Shown here one piece after another: positions 3,711-60,541 of a DNA stretch of 64,000 nucleotides. Below the pieces are notes generated by a model. The model had not been told where the DNA came from, ran no database searches, and worked only from the letters and a program-made list of their open reading frames with translations. A program made the position numbers and the translations under genes. This stretch comes from Eledone cirrhosa (lineage: Eukaryota). Location of the stretch: NCBI GenBank assembly GCA_964016885.1, contig OZ024743.1, positions 192,448,001 to 192,512,000 of the forward strand, written 5' to 3'. How positions within the stretch are numbered: the first letter of the stretch is position 1; every line of letters starts with the position of its first letter.

Positions 3711-6700
3711 AAAAAGATTCTTCTAACTAATGCAAGCATGTAAAAGCGGATGTAAAACAATGATGATGATGTGTGTATGTGTGTTTGTGTGTGTATTATA
3801 TATGTACTAAAATCTTTTTCAACACGCAGATGCATATCTGTATATGTGTGTGCATGTGCATATGCATACATTTATATGTATGAGTATATAAATATAAATA
3901 CGCAAACACAGACACACTTACAAAAATACACACTCAGACATACATTCACACAAATACACAAACATTCACACAAGCACACACACACATACACAAACATTTA
4001 CACAAACACACACTCACACAAAGCGTAGCAAATGGAACGCCAGCTGCTATTTTGCTATAGTTTTTTCCCCATCCCTTTTCTTCCTTTCACACACACATAA
4101 ATTCACACAAACATACACACACAAACATGCTGTGACAGATGGAAGTCACTCAAATTTATATATAGATATATAAATGCAATGAAATATTTTTTTTAAATGA
4201 AGGGTAGACTGTATGATGCCTGTGTACGAACTACAATGTTACATGGCAGTGAAACATGGGATGTAAAGTGATTGGTGATAGGAAGGGCATCCTGGTGTAG
4301 AAAACCTGTCAGACAAAGGGTTGGGAAGACCCTCCAGTCATGTCAATGACCTGACAACCTCCATAGTGTTGGTGATTTACATGATAAACACACCCAGTAC
4401 ACACTGTAAAGTGGTTCGTGATAGGAAGGACATCCAGCCATAGAAATGATGCCAAACAAAGGGTTGGGAAGACACTCAATTGTGTCAAAGCCTCTCTTGT
4501 GTCAAACCTCTCCTGAGCACTGGATGGACCATGAAACCGTACATAAGTGAGACACAGATCCCTGGCTTGCTTGGGAGATCAGTGGCTTTGTGGGAAAAGC
4601 AGACGTTAAAACAACAATAATGATGATGATTACTAAATCAGGGACAAATTATTGAACAGTCATCAAATGCTATTAAACTATTAATGAAATCATTATTATT
4701 TGCAGTTAAACAATAAATGAAGTACATAAGTTTTTATACATAGACTAACATAATCTACAGAGTAAATCTAGATTTTAAGTAAAACTTTATCTTTCAATGA
4801 TAAGCTACAAAAACAAAATTGAGAAGAACGAACCCCTCTGATACCATACAGTCTGACACTGCACTTGATTCTACAATACAAAGCTGCTTGTTTTAAAGTG
4901 TTCATAATTATATTAAAATTTTCCATCATAATTTTATGTAAGAACTTTGTTAAGTTATGCTCCGAACAACTTAAAAACGAAAAACTTATTTTACTATATC
5001 CTCCCACCCACCAAAATAGTTCATTATTTTCAAAATTTATTGAAAATCATATGCAGTGTATTTCATTAGAAATATGGTAACTAAATGATTAACCCTTTTA
5101 ATATGGAACAAGCTGAAACTGCCTCTGGTTCTATGATAAAACAAACAAAAAGATAAATGCGTATATATTTATCTTAAACCCCTCCACCATAAGTTTATGT
5201 AAAATTAAATTATGTTCCAAACACCAGCTTAATAAAGTTATTTATATTACTAAACCCCTCCAAATTCTTGATTATTTTCTAAATTAATTGAAAGTTATAG
5301 GCAGTATATTTCATTAGAATGAAAAGGTTACAGTGACTTTTATGTACCTATAAACAATTCTGTTCATACAAAATATTCTCATTCTGCATAAACTAATACA
5401 CACATGCAAACTTGTCATAAAATATGTGACGATAATTTCTAAATGATTTTTGCTTTCATTTTTTGTTCCTAAATTGTCTTTTTTTTTTAAACAAAAATGA
5501 AATTAAGAAATGCAAACCTACCATGAATGAGTTTACCTTCATATTTAAGACATTTATGTTAACTTAAATATATACATATATATCTCAAAAGTGTTACTGA
5601 CTAACTAACAAAAAATAAAAAAAAGAAACAAAACAATTCAGGAAATGGTGATAGTGGTCAGATAGAAAAAAACAGGACACGGATAAATATTTGTCATTTG
5701 TTTTTGAATATTTAGGTTTTTCCTGTGAGGACTCCACAAGTTTCAGTAAGAGAATAAATAGTAATATAGAGCAAGAACGGAAGGAAGAGAGCATAAGTGG
5801 GACATGTGGAAAATGAGACCAATAGAGAGTGGCAGAGAGGGAGGGAGGAAGGAATATTACGAAATTAGAATGAGAGTTATTCACAACACTACAAGAGGAG
5901 TGTATAGCAAACAACATCAACACCATCATGTCCTACAAATAAAACGTCATTTCAGGCTTAAACTATCGTCATATAAAACATATATCTGCATTTACATAAA
6001 TATATACATAAGCCTACGAACATCCTAGATACATGTGTATTTATACAAATACATACATAAGCACACAAACACATACATGCATCTGTTTTTACACAAATAC
6101 ATACATAAACACACAAACCTATACATACGTCTGTACATAAGCACACGAACATATGCAAACATCTGTAAATACACAAACATATACATAAGCAAACAGACAT
6201 CCTACACTTGACCTGCTTCTTCTCTTTAAGATTTTAGGATAGATCAGTCAGATAGAAAGCAGCAGTAATATTTGATAAATCCTCCATAGTTTGTTTATAG
6301 TTATAAATACTTGCTTTTTTTCTTCTTTGTTATTTAAAATATTTCAACTTAATTTAAATGGCAGTGCAAATAAATTCAATAATTTCAAAGGGAACAAGAT
6401 ATAGGCAGTATCTATTTCATATATATCATCATCATCATCATCATTTATTGTCCATCTTCCATGCTAGCATGAGTTAGATGGGTCGTCCCATTTGAGGCAA
6501 GTTGGGTCAGATGACCGTTTCTTGCTCATACAGGATTGTTTCTGGCTTGATTTCTCCGGCAGGGTGCCCTTCCTAACGCCAACCACATTTACAGTGAGTG
6601 CTGGGTGCTTTTTGTTGTGACACCTACACAACCATTTTACAGTGTGAGCTGGGTGCTTTTTGTCGTGACACCTACACGACTACTTTACAGTGTGGGCTGA

Positions 6701-19745: not shown

Positions 19746-20677
19746 AGTCCAAATCTTTCCCTGAGTTCAGTCTTTTTCGTTGCTATGGCAATGCGGCTGG
19801 ACTGCCGGTCACTATATTTGATTTGCAAAGCTGTCTAAACGTATTGTTATAACTCTGGGGTATTATTCTCCATCGAGTGCTAAGCTGCATTCCGAATCTG
19901 CATTCGTTAGCTTAGCCGCAGCCTAAAGCTTCGTTAATGCTGTACTAAAATTTGTATATATATATTGTTATACTTTGGGAGGGTCATGTTGCCAATAAGA
20001 AACACACGCACCAGTTGCTTTCACTTCAATTTATTATATTGGCAACATGACCCTCCCAAAGTATAACAATATCGGTTTCAACACACGATTTCAGATAAAG
20101 AATCTTGCTAAACAAATTCAGAAACGATATATATATATAAGCTGTATAACAAAGTGCAGGGCAATAAAGATAGACGGTAGCCACGGAATAGGCAGACCTA
20201 GAAAAACATGGGATGAGCTGATAAACTCTGACCTCACACACTTACACCTCTCCAAGACAATGTCACTGGACCGAGACCTTTGGCGGTACTCAGTAACAGA
20301 GAAGACCCGCCTTGCCAGTAGGCATCTCTAACAAAATACACCCCGTCCCGCCACCACCCCCACCCCATCCACACCACCCCGTTCTATGTAAAGTTATGTT
20401 GGTGCCGCGCCATCCAGGCCGAAACAAATGAGATCGTGTAGGTGTCACGACAAAAAAACACACAGTCCACGCTGTAATGTGGCCGTGTAGGCAACACGGT
20501 AAAAACCTCCCAGACCCACACTGTAAATGTGGTTGGTGTTAGGAAGGGCATCCAACTGTAGAAAACCTGCCAGGCAGTCCTATGCGAGCAAGAAAATCAC
20601 TCTTGCCTCAAGTGGGACTACCCCCGTCCAAACCCATGCAAGCGTGGAACACGGACGTTAAACGTTGATGATGATGA

Positions 20678-20927: not shown

Positions 20928-21126
20928 ATTTATATAATCTGTTATTTTAATAAATATATATATATATATATATATTTTTTTTTTAACATGTCTATTGAGC
21001 ACTCTAATTCGATATGTGTATTTCCACATTCACTCGAATTGTTTTCGCGGATATAGGGGTCATCTCCCTTGTCTAATGCCATGTGCGTTTTTCACCGCTA
21101 GTTGACTCCTCTGCCGCCAGGAAAAA

Positions 21127-21261
21127 ACTCGTTGATAACGTAAACTCCATTCCACTTACTCTAGTAGGCTTTTATATTTATATGTGAGCTGATAGAGTAC
21201 AGTCTAAGGATTTACAGAAACCCATGAAGCTAGATTTAACACCTTTCTAGTGGGTCCGGGT
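21127..21261 (+). ncRNA. Type I hammerhead ribozyme (U3-A8 variant), copy 1 in the 615-bp unit
   Basis: Stem I ACTCG/CGGGT; core TTGATAA 21132-38; C.A mismatch; stem II GTAAA(C)TCC/GGATTTAC; GAAA 21217-20; stem III ACCCA..CTAGA/TCTAG.TGGGT; GUC with predicted cleavage after 21256. Confidence 0.75.
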
Positions 21262-21741
21262 ATGATTTTACATTCATTTAAATTATTGACGTATTGTTTT
21301 ATTGATATTTTTTATCTGTTTGGCCCGAATCTTCCTTTATCGATTTTAAATCGTATGGTTGATTGTAGACTTGTTCTATATGTGACGGTATTTTAACGAT
21401 AGTTATAGCTCTGATTCATCTGAATTATTGAGCCCTCTGCCGCTCATATCGAATTTCGTTTATCGTGAACTCGTGCGCCGATTTTTCGATACTCGATCTT
21501 TCTAATATATTTAGCTCTGGACATAGCTATCCACCAGTTAATTTTATTGCTCATTTTTTGTCGTTTCTATTGAGTGATGAATAGCTTTTGTTTTATTTTA
21601 ACATGTCTATTGAGCACTCTAATTCGATATGTGTATTTCCACATTCACTCGAATTGTTTTCGCGGATATAGGGGTCATCTCCCTTGTCTAATGCCATGTG
21701 CGTTTTTCACCGCTAGTTGACTCCTCTGCCGCCAGGAAAAA

Positions 21742-21876
21742 ACTCGTTGATAACGTAAACTCCATTCCACTTACTCTAGTAGGCTTTTATATTTATATGT
21801 GAGCTGATAGAGTACAGTCTAAGGATTTACAGAAACCCATGAAGCTAGATTTAACACCTTTCTAGTGGGTCCGGGT
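21742..21876 (+). ncRNA. Type I hammerhead ribozyme (U3-A8 variant), copy 2 in the 615-bp unit
   Basis: Same sequence as 21127-21261 shifted by 615; predicted cleavage after 21871. Confidence 0.75.
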
Positions 21877-22159
21877 ATGATTTTACATTCATTTAAATTA
21901 TTGACGTATTGTTTTATTGATATTTTTTATCTGTTTGGCCCGAATCTTCCTTTATCGATTTTAAATCGTATGGTTGATTGTAGACTTGTTCTATATGTGA
22001 CGGTATTTTAACGATAGTTATAGCTCTGATTCATCTGAATTATTGAGCCCTCTGCCGCTCATATCGAATTTCGTTTATCGTGAACTCGTGCGCCGATTTT
22101 TCGATACTCGATCTTTCTAATATATATATATATATATAAATAACCTTTTTTCCTTTCAG

Positions 22160-25138: not shown

Positions 25139-25208
<70 letters not shown>

Positions 25209-25339
25209 GTGAGGTTTTTTTTACAAAATGAAAAATAACCGAGGTGTCCTACACGAGTGAAAGTATAAAGAAAAAGAGATGAAATCGAAAATGCAACTGG
25301 AGTCTTATTTTTTTTTAAAATATATATATTTATTTGGTT

Positions 25340-25377
25340 CCTTTACCGGTTTCGCAGTTCTTCTGCTTTTCAAAAGG
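25340..25377 (-). ncRNA. Minimal type I hammerhead (U3-A8), minus-strand arm of the palindrome
   Basis: Exact reverse complement of 25453-25490. Confidence 0.8.
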
Positions 25378-25452
25378 TGAGTTGAGATGGAGGGTCTGTG
25401 GTTTTTCTCACATCTGATGTGAGAAAAACCACAGACCCTCCATCTCAACTCA

Positions 25453-25490
25453 CCTTTTGAAAAGCAGAAGAACTGCGAAACCGGTAAAGG
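25453..25490 (+). ncRNA. Minimal type I hammerhead (U3-A8)
   Basis: CCTT-TTGAAAA-GCAG(aagaa)CTGC-GAA-ACCGGT-A-AAGG: stems I and II, palindromic stem III, GUA site. Confidence 0.8.
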
Positions 25491-25560
25491 AACCAAATAA
25501 ATATATATATTTTTTTAAAAAAATAAGACTCCAGTTGCATTTTCGATTTCATCTCTTTTT

Positions 25561-25629
<69 letters not shown>

Positions 25630-25661: not shown

Positions 25662-26172
25662 TATATATACATACTACTGTACGTCTGTATACATATATGT
25701 ATGTACGTGTACATACTTATATTTAAGTAACAGCCGTACTAAGAGTGGGAAATTAAATTTCATTTCATTTTTTCCGTTTATCGTTTTCGGTGCACCCGGC
25801 CGATTAACCCACTCGATATGCAAATTGGGCTACTCAGCCGTTAATATGCATAAGGTAAGTATATACGTTCAACAATCTGGCAGGAAGGTATACGTTGCTG
25901 ACGATAGCTAATAAGCTTGAAACTAGTACAGCGTTCCTTTGTCAGTGTTGAACAAACGAGCAACGATGGTTGCTAGACACTACGGCTTAATACGGGATGT
26001 TTGTTTACAAACACACCGAGCATTATAATAAATGTTCGGTGAATCCAAACGTTATATATACATACTACTGTACGTCTGTATACATATATGTATGTACGTG
26101 TACATACTTATATTTAAGTAACAGCCGTTCTAAGAGTGGGAAATGAAATTTCGTTTCATTTTTTCCGTTTAT
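25662..26172 (+). mobile_element. Retrozyme-like element: 391-bp unit plus about 120-bp partial tandem repeat in (TA)n
   Basis: 25662-25781 recurs at 26053-26172 with about three substitutions; one central HHR. Confidence 0.75.
25892..25934 (+). ncRNA. Minimal type I hammerhead ribozyme
   Basis: ACGTTG-CTGACGA-T-AGCT(aata)AGCT-T-GAA-ACTAGT-A-CAGCGT; palindromic stem III; GUA site. Confidence 0.85.
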
Positions 26173-27596: not shown

Positions 27597-27632
27597 TCTT
27601 AACGTTTCGGATGCTAGTCCTTCATCAGAAGA
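27597..27632 (-). ncRNA. Minimal hammerhead, Penelope pseudo-LTR type
   Basis: Minus strand TCTT-CTGATGA-A-GGA(ctagca)TCC-GAA-ACGT-T-AAGA. A decayed copy of the same repeat family is at about 37390-37580 (core 37495-37526). Confidence 0.65.
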
Positions 27633-29064: not shown

Positions 29065-31050
29065 TTAATTTAATTCTTTCGTTACTATATTTCTAATAAA
29101 ATACACTACCTTTTATTTTCAAATAATTTCGAAAATAATCAAAAATTTGGCAAGATTTACTTACATAATTTTCACATTATTAACACTTTCATTATCATAT
29201 TTCTAATGAAACACACTATAATTTTTAAAATAAACCAAAAATTTGGTGGTATTTAATAATATAATTAAATTTCTCATTTTTAAGTTGGTATTTGGAACAT
29301 AAAGAGTCTTACAAAAAATTATGATGGAAGCTTTTTAGATAAATATAAACACTTTAAAACAAATGATTTTCTATTATTGAACCAGGATGTTAGGTATGAA
29401 AAAGTTAAATGACAAATTTATCCAAGAAATATAGATCAATATTTTGTAACTTATTGTAGTAACTAAAAGGGTGGAAAGATAAGATTATAATGGATTTACT
29501 TGCGGATGTCATGATTCATGGCACATTTGTAGAATGAAAGGAATCGTAGAGAGAGAAGACATAAAGGTAGCGAAGAAGAGAGAGCAATGGGGGGAACTAG
29601 TGTATAAGAAAGGAGGAGGGAAGCCAAAAGAAAGCTGTGTGTTCCTGTGAGGAGCAGGGGAGTTTAAATAGAGAGAAGACATAGAGGTAAGGAAGAGAGT
29701 GAGGGTGGACGATGCTAATAAGAGAGAAGTAGAGTGAAACCAAGAGAGACTGAGCATGTATGTGAGGAGCAGGCAGCAAAAGGGAGAGAAGGAAGACAAA
29801 GGAGGAAAAACAAGAATGCAAGAAGTGGGGAACAAAAGTATGAGAAAGGAAATACACAAATAGTAAAGAAGCTGAGGGGGAGAGAGAGAAAACAGGAGTG
29901 AGAGAAACAGAGACAGAAAGGTGAGGGATAAATAAAAAGAATTACAAAGGATGTAGAAAGAGATGAAATAGAAATATGTGAAGTAGGATAGCAGGCAAGA
30001 AAAGTGAAACTACCCCTGGTTCTATAATCCAGAGCTGTTCATTTGTTAAAGTGTGAATGTGCATGGCTTAATAGTTAGGGTATTCAGCTGCTGATCTTAA
30101 TGTCATGAGTTCTATTCCTGAGCAGAATATTGAATAGATGTAACATCAAGAAAGGTAAACAGAAGCAGGTGTTCTTGGTATCAATGGCATCAAAGCTTTG
30201 TGAATATGGATCAGTGAACAAACAGTAACTAGTATGTGTACGTGTGACTGTATTTATATATGGCCCAGTGATTAAAGTATTGAGCTCATGATCATCAAAT
30301 TTGATTGCAGGACCCAACAGTGCATTGTCCTTAAGCAAGACACTTTATTTCACATTGCTCCAGTCCACTCAGCTGGAAAAAATGAGTTGTACTTTTATTT
30401 TAAAAGACCAGCCATATCACACACTGTCATGCTTAATCTTCTTGAAAATTGTATTAAATGTGCATTTTGTTAGTGGAATGCTTGCATGTTAATTCCATAA
30501 ATAGGCTGTTCCATTGTTTGAACAACTGAAAGACTCATCATCATCATCACAACACACACACACCTTTTAAAGTATTTATATTTATCTTTCATCATAATTT
30601 AATGTCAAAGAATATTTGTTAATAAGAAGAAAATTAGTTATATTACTAAATCCCTCAAATTCTTGATTTTTTTCAAAATAATTTTAAAATGATGGTCAAT
30701 GATAAAAGAGTTAAAAATAAACATTCAAATAAAAGGGAGTGAGGGGGAGGGGGGAGGGGAATCCCAAACAGAAAATAAATAAAAAATAGTGGGAACCTGA
30801 TGTATATTTAAGCATGTCAGTTGTGGGATGGGGCAGGGGGGTATAAAAATAATTAAACCAAATGATTAACACTCATCTTTTTGTTAGATTTCAGATAGAG
30901 GCCTATAACTTGATACTCCTCTAACTTGTGCACTACATATGTATGTGTGTGTATATGATTAACAGTTCTTTGGTTACATTATATTACTAAATTCTTTCAT
31001 TATTCTTTGATTATTTTTTTTCATTAGAAATATGGTAAGGAAAGAGTTAA

Positions 31051-32289: not shown

Positions 32290-32367
32290 TATTTTGTCTG
32301 AAGAGGACATGTTTTGGTTTATGTTATACATAAAATTTTGCATCTCCGAAATATATATAATAAAATA
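32290..32367 (+). ncRNA. Type I hammerhead with long stem II
   Basis: TATTTTGT-CTGAAGA-GGACATG...CATCTCC-GAA-ATATATAT-A-ATAAAATA. Confidence 0.75.
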
Positions 32368-41466: not shown

Positions 41467-43330
41467 TAATTAGTTACAACAGTGTACTGGTACTTAAGTT
41501 TTGTTGGGTTGTTTACCTCAAATCATTCAGTATATCATAAAAAGAAAAATGGTTTCCCACAATGGAGATTTTATAAAAATATAGGTGAGTTCTAAGGGTA
41601 GATAATCCCCATTATCTAGAAACCAACAAATACCTTACATAATGTAAGTGAAAAAAGAGATAACAATAAAAAAAAAGGTTATTAGAGAACACTCCAACCT
41701 TAATCGGTGGGATAATAGTCAAGTAGTCATGGATTAGTTTAATGTCTTCAAACACTCAAAGAATGCTAAGTTTACACAATTTGATATAGTTGACTTTTAT
41801 CTTTCCTTACCCAGGACCTTGGATTTCGCTAGCAATTTCACCATATATATACGAGTTAGTAATATCCCACTGTAGGAAAACCCTCCTCTTTAAAATAGAA
41901 ATCCACTAAAAATTACCTATTCGATGTGGTGATGGGATTATTTGACAGTACTGATATATGTGATTTGGGGGACCTTTTTATCTTAGACACACTACGTAAG
42001 AATTCCTTGACTTCCATATGGGCCTATATCGTGATGATGGTCTGGGACTATCGAGCCATAACCTCAAAACGTTTAGAAAAAAAATCTAATAATTACCTTC
42101 AACAACCTAGACTAAAAATGACCATCTCTACCAACTTCACCAATGTTAACTTCCTAGATGTTAACTTAGACCTATGTCTACGCACATACATACCATTCCC
42201 CCACAAACCCAGTGAAAAACTTAGGTATATTCATAAGGACTCTAGTCCTCCCACCACCAACATAGTTTTTATAAATCTCATTAATAACATCAGCAAGAGG
42301 GTATCTAGCAAAGCCATCTTTGACAGGGCAGCCCCCAACAACAACAACTCAGCCCCAGCATTAGTGGCTTCTTCGAGAGAATCTCTTACTCTCCAGATCA
42401 CTGCCCTATAACTAGCAAGAAAAAATCTAGGCATAAAGCCATAATGTGGTTCACACCACCATTCGTGCTCAATATGAAGACAATGTAGGTAGAAAATACC
42501 TAGCCTTCTTAGGTTTTCGCTTCCCTGTAGCCTACAAATACCAGCAAATATTTAACTGCTACACAATGAAAATAGGTTACTCATGTACCAAAAATATGAA
42601 ATCCCACATCACCAACAAACACAAAAGTCTTCCACCTTACGGATGCTCATGCAGAAGGCCAGAGGCATACTCCCTGGATCAACAGTGCACACCCCTCCTG
42701 TGGTGATACATTAAGCAGAAGTTACCTCCACCAACCAGAACCACTAAACTGAAGCCTGGACTTCTGTAGGAATGTTTGAGAGCCGGTTCAAAAGCCATTT
42801 CCTGAACCACGAAACAACGTTCTGACCACTCAGCTTGCGAACCATATATGGAACCTCAAAGATAACAGCACAGTATTTTCCATTAAATAAAGGATACTGG
42901 AAAGATCCACTCCTACGTCAATGGGATGGCATGTTGGTAGCTGTGTAACTCGAAGAAGTGGAATATACTCTCACAACAGACTTCAGGCAAACATTGCTTA
43001 AATATACGCTTCCCCTGCTTCAATTGCTGTCATCCTTAAGCAAAATTTATTCTGAATAAATGGTCTAAAACAGATTAATTGAATTTATTTTTTTGAATTT
43101 TCAATTCAACCCCTGGGCTCGCTGTGAAACAGTTGCCTACCAAGGATTTTTTTTAATAGTTACCTTCCTTTTCACTTACATTATATAAGGTGTATTTGTG
43201 TATTTATAGATAATTTCGGGTTTACCTACACTTAGAACTCTTCTATACTTTCTAAAATCTCCACGTTGGGAAGCCAAACAACCCAACGAAACCTAAGTAC
43301 TTGTACATGTTGTAACTAACTAATTTTATA
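41467..43330 (+). mobile_element. Decayed, 5'-truncated Penelope-like element (RT + GIY-YIG) with inverted pseudo-LTR termini
   Basis: Frameshifted motifs QFDIVDFY (41777), FDVVMG..D..DICDL, GLYRDDGL (42021), VNFLDVNLDL, WFTPPF..NVGRKYL, HIWNLKD. About 41467-41665 is a diverged reverse complement of about 43160-43330. Confidence 0.85.
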
Positions 43331-43339
43331 TATATATAT

Positions 43340-44698
43340 CATCATCATCATCTTCGTTTAACGTCCATCTTCCACGCTAGCATGGGTTAGACGGGAGTTG
43401 TCCCACTTGAGGCAAGGTTGGTCGGGTGACCATGTCTCGCTCATATAGGACTATCTGGCAGGTTTTCTACGGCTGGATGCCCTTCCTAACACCAACCACA
43501 TTTACGGTGTGGAACTGGGAACTTTTTACTGTGTTACCTACACGGCCACATTACAGCGTGGACTGTGTGTTTTTTTGTTGTGACACCTACACGATCTTGA
43601 TCTCATTATCTCATTTATTTGGACTGGATGTTGTGGTACCAACTTTACAGAGACAGGGTGGTGTTGGTGGGAGTGGGAGGATAGGGTAGGGATAGTGGAT
43701 TGCGGTATATATTTGGTTAAGAGGTGCCTACTGACTGTAGGTTTTGCTTTGTACATAGGCAAAGCGGGTCTTCTGTATTACTGCGTAGCGCCAAAGATCT
43801 CGGTCCAGTGACATTGTCTTAGAGGTGCAAGTGTGTAAGGTCGAAATTTATCAGATCGTCCCAGGTTTTTCTGGGTCTACCTACTCCGTAACTACCATCA
43901 ATTTTGATCGCCCTGCACTTTTTTATACAGCTATCGTCTTTCATGCGCATCACGTGGCCATACCAACGTAGTCTTCTCTCCAAAGTAAACAGCATCTGAT
44001 CCCTTTATTCATAATTTCTCATTTAGTTCATTTATGCTTTGCCGTTCACGTATATTACTATTACACATCCAACGGAGCATGCATGCTTTGTTCCTTTCCA
44101 GTCTGCGCAGGTCCTCTGCACGTAATGCCCATTTGTATACAGGCATCATACAATCTGCCTTTCATTTTTAGAGAGAAACCTTTTGTGGCCAACAGCAGTA
44201 TAAGCTCTCCGAAACTTTTCCATCCCGTTCTGACTCTGGCTACTGAACTTTCAGAACACCCTCCACCACTGCTGATTTCGTCACCCAGGTAACGGAAAGT
44301 GTCCACTATTTCTATAGAACCATCTGGGCAATAGGAGCTAGTATCCTGTGGACACTTGCTACTGAGCATCGGCCACATATAAAGTCTACGTTCTTAGATA
44401 GTTTACCTGTGATCCCACTACATCTTTTATGCACCCATACTTTGCATTTGGGACATAAAATGGAATTTCTGCCTACACACTGAGCATGGCCATTTCCCTG
44501 AGGGCACCTGTGCCCTATTTTCCTTTCTACAAACTAGAACTTTAGTCTTAGACAAGTTAACTTTAAGGCCTTTTGATTCTAGGCCATGCTTCCATGTTTG
44601 GAATTTCTTCTCTAGTTCAGCCATTGATTCAGCTATGAGCGTTAGATCATCTGTATATAGGAGTTCCCATGGGCAGCCGGTCTTGAACTCTTCTGTTA
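43340..44698 (-). mobile_element. RTE LINE 3' half, minus strand
   Basis: WELLYTDDL, KVNLSKTK, VDTFRYLG, KGRLYDAC, RLRWYGHVMRM, followed by the 3' UTR and (GAT)n tail. Confidence 0.9.
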
Positions 44699-45590
44699 TA
44701 TATATATATATATACATATAGTAATAATATGGTGAGATGCCCGTTTCATGATTCGTACATATGCATGTGTGTGTGTATGAATGTTTGACGTAAGCTAAGC
44801 AAGATAAATATCTGAATCACTCATAAGTGACCTGACAGGAGAAACATATGAACATGACAGCCATTTGATGTGTCTGACTAGCCGCAGAATGTGACTACCT
44901 ATCTAATCCATGCACGCAGGGAAAAATAAATTCAAAATGGTGACACTGATGATGATGATGATATCATCATCATCATCATCATCATCAGGTTTAGCGTCCG
45001 TGTTCCACGCTTGCATGGGTTTGGACGGGGGTTTTCCCACTTGAGGCAAGAGTGGTTGTCTTGCTCGCATAGGACTGTCTGGCGGGTTTTCTACAGTTGG
45101 ATGCCCTTCCTAACACCAACCACATTTACAGTGTGGGGCTGGGAGGTTTTTACCGTGTTGCCTACACGGCCACATTACAGCGTGGACTGTCTGGCGGGTT
45201 TTCTACAGCTGGATGCCCTTCCTAACACCAACCACATTTACAGTGTGGGGCTGGGAGGTTTTTACCGTGTTGCCTACACGGCCACATTTACAGCGTGGAC
45301 TGTGTGTTTTTTTTTGTGATATATATATATATATATTTCTGTTTCTGGCAGGTTTTCTATGGCTGGATGCCCTTCCTAACATCAACCACATTTACAGTGT
45401 GAACTGGGAGCCTTTTTACCATATCTCCTACACGACCACTTTACATATATATATCCATATATATGTAGGAGGTGAGTTTTATTGTAGTACAATAAAGCAA
45501 TGCAGATATCGGATAAGCAGCACTCTACAGTTTGTAGGACTGGAGTATAAATAATATATAAGATCAAAAGATGGTTAAAAGAGTTCCATG

Positions 45591-45661
45591 TATTTTATTA
45601 TGCGCATTTCAAAAACAAATATCATCACGCAATGACATTTGCGTTTTCGTCAGATAAAATA
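45591..45661 (-). ncRNA. Type I hammerhead, minus arm of the fold-back
   Basis: Reverse complement of 45733-45803 (one change in distal stem II). Confidence 0.8.
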
Positions 45662-45732
45662 GGGAGACATGATATGAAGGTTAAAAAACACTTGTGAATA
45701 GTGCAGTTTTAAATCAACATATCATGTCTCCC

Positions 45733-45803
45733 TATTTTATCTGACGAAAACGCAAATGTCATCGCGTGATGATATTTGTTTTTGAAATGCGCATAATAAA
45801 ATA
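45733..45803 (+). ncRNA. Type I hammerhead, canonical core
   Basis: TATTTTAT-CTGACGA-[AAACGCAAATGTCATC gcgt GATGATATTTGTTTTT]-GAA-ATGCGCAT-A-ATAAAATA; 8-bp stem I; AUA site. Confidence 0.85.
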
Positions 45804-46204
45804 CATGGAACTCTTTTAACCATCTTTTGATCTTATATATTATATCCATATATATATATATATATTTATTTATCCCTCTATCTCTCCCTCTCCCTCTCAC
45901 TCTCTTTCTCTCTCTCCATCCCTCCCACTATAAACAATTTAATTCTCTTTAACTCACTACACTCTAAATCTACATATGTCTACATATATCAAAACTGATC
46001 AAAGATTCCTTCCACATCTACCCCTCCCTCCATATCAGTTTGTCACCTACTTCCTAATTCTTCTCCCCCTTCCTCTCTCTCTCTATACTACTCCCTTTGT
46101 CCCTCCACTTTCTAATTCTTCTTCCTCTCTCTCTATACTAGCAAATACAATTCCAAAAAATGTTTTTCTATATATTAAGAACTTGTTAAGAGTAACTTAT
46201 TCAC

Positions 46205-60364: not shown

Positions 60365-60403
60365 GAAATTAATAAATGGAAACTATATTTATAAAACCAT
60401 ATT

Positions 60404-60468
60404 TATTTCATTATACATATTTCAGGGATACCATATTAAATTATGGTATGCCTTCATCAGACAAAATA
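60404..60468 (-). ncRNA. Type I hammerhead with long stem II, between two (TA)n tracts
   Basis: Minus strand TATTTTGT-CTGATGA-AGGCATACCATA...TATGGTATCCCT-GAA-ATATGTAT-A-ATGAAATA. Confidence 0.75.
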
Positions 60469-60541
60469 CAATATATAACAGTTTTACAAATAGCTTTGAC
60501 GTACCCTTTTAAAATACAACCATTAATTTCGGAGGCTGTCT

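Follow-up and report, generated by a model that had tools for sequence, protein, structure and literature searches.

A head-to-head hammerhead palindrome in Eledone cirrhosa, likely one of thousands of short insertions of an abundant Penelope-like element

Described Penelope-like elements and the palindrome at 25264-25567

Inverted copies, one-sided tails and a bias towards (TA)n targets have been described for Penelope-like elements (PLEs) (PMC8557442), and the pLTR and tail architecture of the EN+ members, as presented in PMC8557442 and PMC3846280, includes a head-to-head inverted copy, a tail at one end, a palindromic junction and a hammerhead ribozyme (HHR) within the pLTR. Minimal hammerheads of the U3-A8 type are likewise documented in PLEs, with pairs on opposite strands lying 100-700 bp apart (PMC4209133). 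Inverted pLTRs, tails, U3-A8 cores and opposite-strand hammerhead pairs are, in other words, already published. With regard to the insertion reaction, the Anolis Poseidon PLE is reported in PMC11167929 to cut and extend both DNA strands in vitro, with an RT that uses two adjacent internal start sites whose spacing equals the tail, a protein predicted to be a dimer and a template that is mostly uncleaved RNA. Short non-coding HHR repeats linked to PLE pLTRs are also known as non-LTR retrozymes (bioRxiv 10.64898/2026.07.22.740005; PMC7229834).

The window analysed here, i.e. a stretch of 64,000 nucleotides of the Eledone cirrhosa assembly GCA_964016885.1 (contig OZ024743.1, positions 192,448,001 to 192,512,000), contains an insert with the architectural features named above for the EN+ members. 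A first-pass annotation made from the letters of the sequence had described a palindrome of about 300 bp with a 1-nt loop and arms of about 150 bp, placing a U3-A8 minimal hammerhead on each strand, and both statements are confirmed: the arms at 25264-25414 and 25416-25567, the longer being 152 nt, flank the single central T25415 and differ by only two substitutions and a 1-nt gap, all located in one T/A run, while the motif and its key positions are found in both arms. Overlooked at that stage were a 62-nt tail past the left arm, (TA)n at both ends and the high copy number.

Numbering the element from the hammerhead U3 as position 0, the first arm is a tailed 'long end' copy on the minus strand (25202-25416, element -43 to about +172/+177) which matches the upstream pLTR and tail of the parent element described below by 100 %. 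Its tail (25202-25263, minus strand) is found in this arm only and consists of the ~62 nt with which the element body begins downstream of the pLTR, lying between the pLTR and the ORF start in the full-length copy L033. The second arm is a tail-less 'short end' copy on the plus strand (25416-25567, element -41 to +109), with a 98 % match to the parent pLTR. Both hammerheads are of the minimal type I, one located at 25340-25377 on the minus strand (U3 at 25373, A17 at 25344) and the other at 25453-25490 on the plus strand (U3 at 25457, A17 at 25486), the latter with a stem I of 4 bp, a stem II of 4 bp, a palindromic stem III (ACCGGT) and a predicted cut at 25486/25487, i.e. +29/+30. The arms are joined head to head through C-T-G at 25414-25416, likely reflecting an overlap between the 3' ends of two cDNAs in which the middle position is a T:T mismatch, and the whole is embedded in a (TA)n target microsatellite (25140-25201 on the left, 25568-25623 on the right). 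At almost every locus, the arms run into (TA)n.

Compared with the published EN+ PLEs, as far as these are covered in PMC8557442 and PMC3846280, the whole insert consists of two stumps of ~150-220 nt, the tail measures about 62-68 nt instead of 30-40, and the 5' ends pile up at one point, whereas those of the published elements are randomly truncated. A further observation concerns the boundary between the T run and the A run (25510-25525 and 25305-25320; +50 to +64 in the family), which is unequal between the arms of most palindromes. The total length of the two runs is nearly constant and the boundary shifts even when the arms are otherwise identical, possibly by micro-inversion through template switching.

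The parent element and its hammerhead

Exact pattern searches of the 3.0-Gb genome itself returned 10,850 copies of the 34-nt hammerhead core (control 0), 14,614 copies of a 29-mer further downstream and 499 copies of the exact junction found in the window, the latter in both polarities. The proposed origin from a PLE is borne out by the finding of non-inverted coding copies. One of them (L032) harbours an intact ORF of 770 aa with RVT_1 (5e-7) and C-terminal GIY-YIG (7.6e-5) matches above the Pfam cut-offs, and its translation shows C-x4-C-x2-C immediately before the GIY-YIG region, which fits the CX2-5CxxC linker given in PMC8557442 as a criterion for the Neptune and Nematis clades. L033 shows the order pLTR-tail-ORF-pLTR, with a 484-bp direct repeat (98 %) and a hammerhead in each copy. 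Judged by its RT, GIY-YIG domain, linker motif and pLTRs, the parent is classified as a Neptune/Nematis-type EN+ PLE. On the element map, the cut lies at +29/+30; the short end follows at +109, the long end is reached at ~+177 and an ATG first appears near +205. The tail of the family comprises the ~62-68 nt that directly follow the upstream pLTR and lead up to the ORF start, and both 3' ends adjoin TATA-like sequence in the element. Taken together, the palindrome is likely one of thousands of short stumps of this very abundant element. A PDB sequence search with the parent ORF returned 0 matches. Separately, L033 harbours a frame of 332 aa without a Pfam match between the pLTR and the RT frame (4513-5508, minus strand), which may form the N-terminus of a single long ORF or stand as an ORF of its own.

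Each arm reads CCTT-TTGAAAA-GCAG/CTGC-GAAA-CCGG-TA-AAGG, with the core boxes, a Watson-Crick 3-8 pair (U3-A8), G10.1-C11.1, stems I and II, and a cut site G-U-A of the NUH type. A relaxed hammerhead scan gave eight matches in the window, compared with an average of 0.017 per 64 kb over 60 shuffles; the Rfam search at the gathering threshold did not detect the hammerhead. The metazoan PLE hammerheads of PMC4209133, including that of the Schistosoma element Cercyon (U3-A8), share the 3-8 pair, the short stem I, G10.1-C11.1 and a palindromic stem III for dimer folding. In contrast to the motifs described there, stem II is only 4 bp long, A9 is directly followed by G10.1 with no extra nucleotide in between, the sequence varies very little (10,850 exact copies) and U3 has A17 as a possible pairing partner.

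The earlier reading of a minimal hammerhead that folds as a dimer through its palindromic stem III finds support in the predicted co-fold of two monomers, in which the minimum is a swapped dimer with a 6-bp ACCGGU helix (-22.5 kcal/mol). The best predicted folds also pair U3 with A17, and 3-17 pairing inhibits hammerhead cleavage. Therefore, the ribozyme is predicted to be weak, probably even when unmasked. The main texts of the mainly open-access literature searched gave no activity test of a U3-A8 hammerhead with A17.

Natural variation at the core is limited: genome pattern counts gave 0 copies of C3-G8 and 42 of C3-A8, no covariation was found between positions 3 and 8 within the genome, and one subfamily has a broken fourth pair of stem I without compensation. 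In the reads of another species, C instead of U is found at hammerhead position 3 (L033:5680) in nearly all of the depth. As an observation in its own right, C3-A8 occurs in both arms of the head-to-head pairs at C7:64038876-64039404 and C22:8519585-8519730, a pattern compatible with both arms deriving from one template or one source copy.

Proposed twin priming and its rivals

We consider it probable that the palindrome is a short insertion of the Neptune/Nematis-type PLE into (TA)n, built in place by twin priming. According to this model, the endonuclease would cut both strands of (TA)n, and each target 3' end would prime reverse transcription in the 5' leader of the RNA, one at +109 and one at +177, with both priming sites adjoining TATA-like matches to the target. 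Both sense cDNAs would run off the RNA 5' end near -43, whereupon their 3' ends (..CTG) would anneal as C:G, T:T and G:C, and fill-in would leave a centre of 1 nt, either T or A. The hammerhead would thereby be a passenger from the pLTR, carried on templates that are mostly uncleaved, a small fraction of which is likely cleaved at +30, and hairpin RNA from any read-through would be a by-product. The first-pass annotation had invoked inverted 5' copies generated by PLE insertion; the inversion by a PLE stands, and the label is too loose, since each arm is a short copy of the RNA start and equivalent to the other.

The copies were surveyed at 155 loci around the first matches of two exact patterns, merged into 111 segments of contig C1. 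Because the loci were chosen by retained exact motifs, the sample is non-random and biased towards young copies. Of 207 arm matches, 17 were dropped as microsatellite, leaving 190 arms, whose 3' ends lie near +177 (110 arms), near +109 (69) or elsewhere (11). Starts fall within -45 to -38 in 79/190 arms and beyond -100 in 51/190; the pile-up near -43 is likely the RNA 5' end, as judged from the DNA ends. The same start, at -43 to -39, is seen in single uninverted arms that are joined to (TA)n, and 75/190 arms have no close inverted partner. A spliced template was also considered as the cause of the -43 edge and rejected, since the CAG is retained and there is no common upstream exon. Among the 58 head-to-head pairs listed by script, one was a duplicate, and 56 of the remaining 57 distinct junctions combine one tailed with one tail-less arm, the longer arm being tail-less in 29 pairs and tailed in 20, with equal lengths in seven. 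Twin priming is supported by the fixation of the 3' ends at two sites, by the 5' pile-up and by the rule that one arm has a tail and the other lacks it.

Several observations weigh against the twin-priming model. Many pairs are near-symmetric away from the hotspot (e.g. -148/-148, -27/-27 and -62/-66), which two independent cDNAs could achieve only by coupling or later trimming, and the long tailed arms that extend kilobases upstream call for tandem transcripts or a jump between templates. These symmetric arms are in turn expected if a cDNA primed at the tail end reached the RNA 5' end, snapped back, copied itself to +109 and joined the other target end. Two further points favour such a fold-back. 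Firstly, some junctions (L014 and L044) fit a 4-nt hairpin loop. Secondly, in 30 fetched loci with the junction of the window plus the window itself, the central T belongs to the tailed arm in 21/31, to the tail-less arm in 6/31 and is ambiguous in 4/31, a polarity of 21:6 that departs from 1:1 (p=0.006). Against the fold-back, 29 of the 49 pairs with unequal arms have the greater length on the tail-less side, a loop of 1 nt is improbable on steric grounds, and the run-off end lies on the tail-less arm in six clear loci, where a pure fold-back fails because the tail of the partner is not copyable from a tail-less first strand. Two end-to-end sense cDNAs therefore fit the copies better, and fold-back as the sole route is disfavoured and appears unlikely. 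Considering the symmetric arms off the hotspot and the skewed polarity, some fold-back or length coupling is nevertheless likely, and fold-back may have contributed to a part of the copies.

The published reading of head-to-head PLE palindromes, namely self-priming on an antisense transcript (PMC3846280), accounts for the head-to-head rather than tail-to-tail polarity. It leaves the single uninverted arms starting at -43 to -39 without account; moreover, the two fixed 3' ends match the RT starts observed in vitro on sense templates and the minor +30 class discussed below sits at the sense-strand cut site, so that we regard this route as improbable for the present family.

Even less probable is that the palindrome moves as a unit, in a MITE- or retrozyme-like manner, or constitutes a selected self-silencing or dsRNA device. 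The 499 identical junctions and the perfect hairpin formed if transcribed would fit, as would the heavily edited PLE copies in lizard and the wealth of dsRNA-linked editing in octopus described in PMC5625713. The identical junction, however, is found in both polarities and in several subfamilies, and has therefore formed repeatedly instead of being copied as a unit; junctions vary widely over the 57 pairs, the arms lacking a close inverted partner speak against a fixed unit, and the ORFs scanned (see below) gave no sign of a host transcript. Divergence amounts to 2.5 % between the arms of a pair as opposed to 5.3 % between loci, with subfamily marks common to pairs; gene conversion could also be a source of variants common to both arms. 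MITE-like transposition of a unit was accordingly rejected, as neither junction, polarity nor subfamily is fixed across copies. The same applies to a non-LTR retrozyme: the retrozymes of bioRxiv 10.64898/2026.07.22.740005 are direct tandems, whereas the copies here occur as head-to-head pairs, as single stumps or within coding elements, and map onto an autonomous parent.

A fold-back chimera of the assembly or library, which would leave the palindrome absent from independent reads, is hardly credible, because the arms differ, the tail is on one arm only, the junction type recurs at 499 sites and, at the level of the family, two Illumina raw-read runs contain reads that change strand at this position of the element (21 and 24 reads, which derive from no more than two and one start places, respectively). 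In the raw reads, the strand switch falls at -41/-42, and loose ends in (TA)n lie at -42, +105 and +177.

Twin priming of this kind has its closest experimental counterpart in Poseidon, which belongs to another clade, Penelope/Poseidon, described as being without the Zn-finger linker (PMC8557442). The RT start of Poseidon is given as not homologous to the target (PMC11167929), whereas both starts here adjoin TATA-like matches to it, and some genomic ends in the present family fall at the ribozyme cut, a position at which PMC11167929 found no RNA-seq ends. No report of a twin-priming model for PLEs was found in the main texts of the mainly open-access literature searched.

A second, unrelated family in the window obeys the same end rules. 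Its head-to-head palindrome at 45465-45843 has a tail on the left arm only and carries canonical C3-G8 minimal hammerheads at 45741 (plus strand) and 45653 (minus strand), with a long stem II and a palindromic stem III. A 30-mer of this family has 904 exact copies, there are two fixed 3' ends, starts lie at -68 to -70 in 10/28 loci, and pairs are clearly of the tail-plus-short kind in 10/13 and ambiguous in 3/13. No coding parent could be linked to the family; two tblastn matches, both downstream of the arms, have the appearance of separate inserts.

Several other features of the window are noted here. Its SINEs and microsatellites have the look of octopus DNA. A retrozyme-like unit in the right flank (25662-26172) has 120-bp direct repeats 391 nt apart and encloses a C3-G8 hammerhead (25898-25928) with a 6-bp stem I and a palindromic stem III; relatives were seen at about 25 fetched loci, frequently adjoining (TA)n. 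Hammerhead-like motifs are also present at 60390-60540 (minus), 32298-32359 (plus), 27601-27628 (minus) and 29086-29122 (minus), with the one at 60460 within a short insert that has (TA)n on both sides. A degenerate frame at 41899-42411 (plus) resembles, by eye, the PLE reverse transcriptase of another clade, presumably Naiad-like, and has no Pfam match. Finally, two further repeats are present, one inverted (19962-20072; 36 bp, spacer of 39 nt) and one direct and exact (20976-21890; 300 bp, 615 nt apart).

Possible ribozyme cleavage, possible hairpin RNA and the role of the family

A minor class of arms starting at +30 may record cleavage of the template. The pattern for arms broken between +21 and +34 gave 821 matches, and among the 100 of these listed, 47 were true ends by eye, nine of them at +30. 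As one of the nine is a local duplication, 8/46 remain (p=0.015; among the matches listed), and +32 ends are as frequent among the same matches (nine, mostly with microhomology). A second pattern, specific for +30 ends, gave 85 matches, 30 of which were checked by script: six are mutants or deletions, three local duplications and nine single arms, while the inverted partner starts from +28 or later in nine and upstream in three. This last ratio is reversed at neighbouring break points (2 versus 11; Fisher p=0.005 against the +30 class). Ends joined to (TA)n were found by eye, within the 100 matches listed, at about 25 distinct loci for +28 to +32 compared with five for the T run at +21 to +23, the positions carrying a phase ambiguity of 1-2 nt. 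Stalling of the RT at the folded ribozyme is an alternative cause of the +30 class. On balance, the genomic ends somewhat favour rare hammerhead cleavage in vivo, and cleaved templates would probably affect <1 % of copies.

A fuller reading, which we hold tentatively and rate slightly below even, would combine these elements: a dimeric RT-endonuclease would prime both (TA)n strands at two fixed leader sites with the ends joined head to head, the copies would constitute a fossil record of this reaction, and the +30 run-off class, whose arms usually have a partner also starting at or beyond +30, would be the first in vivo trace of cleavage by a metazoan minimal U3-A8 hammerhead. In a variant of the same reading, the template would be a pair of RNAs held together by the palindromic stem III.

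With respect to silencing, the first-pass annotation had proposed that read-through from either direction yields a long dsRNA in which the antisense arm is made first and masks the ribozyme. The geometry is right: the arms point outward, so that any read-through produces the antisense arm first, and the 304 nt are predicted to fold into one hairpin (-247.8 kcal/mol). Masking of the ribozyme by read-through would thus be geometrically correct. A self-silencing configuration found no support as a function, given that the layout is a routine insertion product of the family, repeated many times, and the palindrome more likely arose as a by-product of insertion than as a device for gene silencing. 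The scan of 100 of the 218 candidate ORFs, which short exons would escape, revealed no host exon; it recovered only RT fragments and, among RT-like fragments, one PHD-finger match (44315-44533, minus strand), which is probably LINE-borne.

By analogy, ADAR or siRNA targeting of the family is plausible. Antisense small RNAs on rotifer Penelopes have been published, and PMC5625713 describes PLE-derived editing in lizard and a high dsRNA potential in octopus. The PLE family may likewise contribute to dsRNA and editing in Eledone cirrhosa, without this copy being singled out. Extrapolating from 57 pairs in 37 Mb, roughly 4,600 hairpin-forming inserts are expected genome-wide, which, where transcribed, could feed bulk A-to-I editing.

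Taken by itself, the locus is a single copy among the many of a common repeat, and the family matters modestly. The origin of the inverted ends and tails of PLEs is stated as open in PMC8557442, and the copy statistics presented here favour sense-RNA twin priming over the antisense self-priming published in PMC3846280. If the +30 class is real, weak U3-A8 hammerheads would indeed cut in vivo, albeit rarely. For an in vitro test, the family yields exact sites (-43, +30, +109 and +177) together with an intact RT-endonuclease frame.
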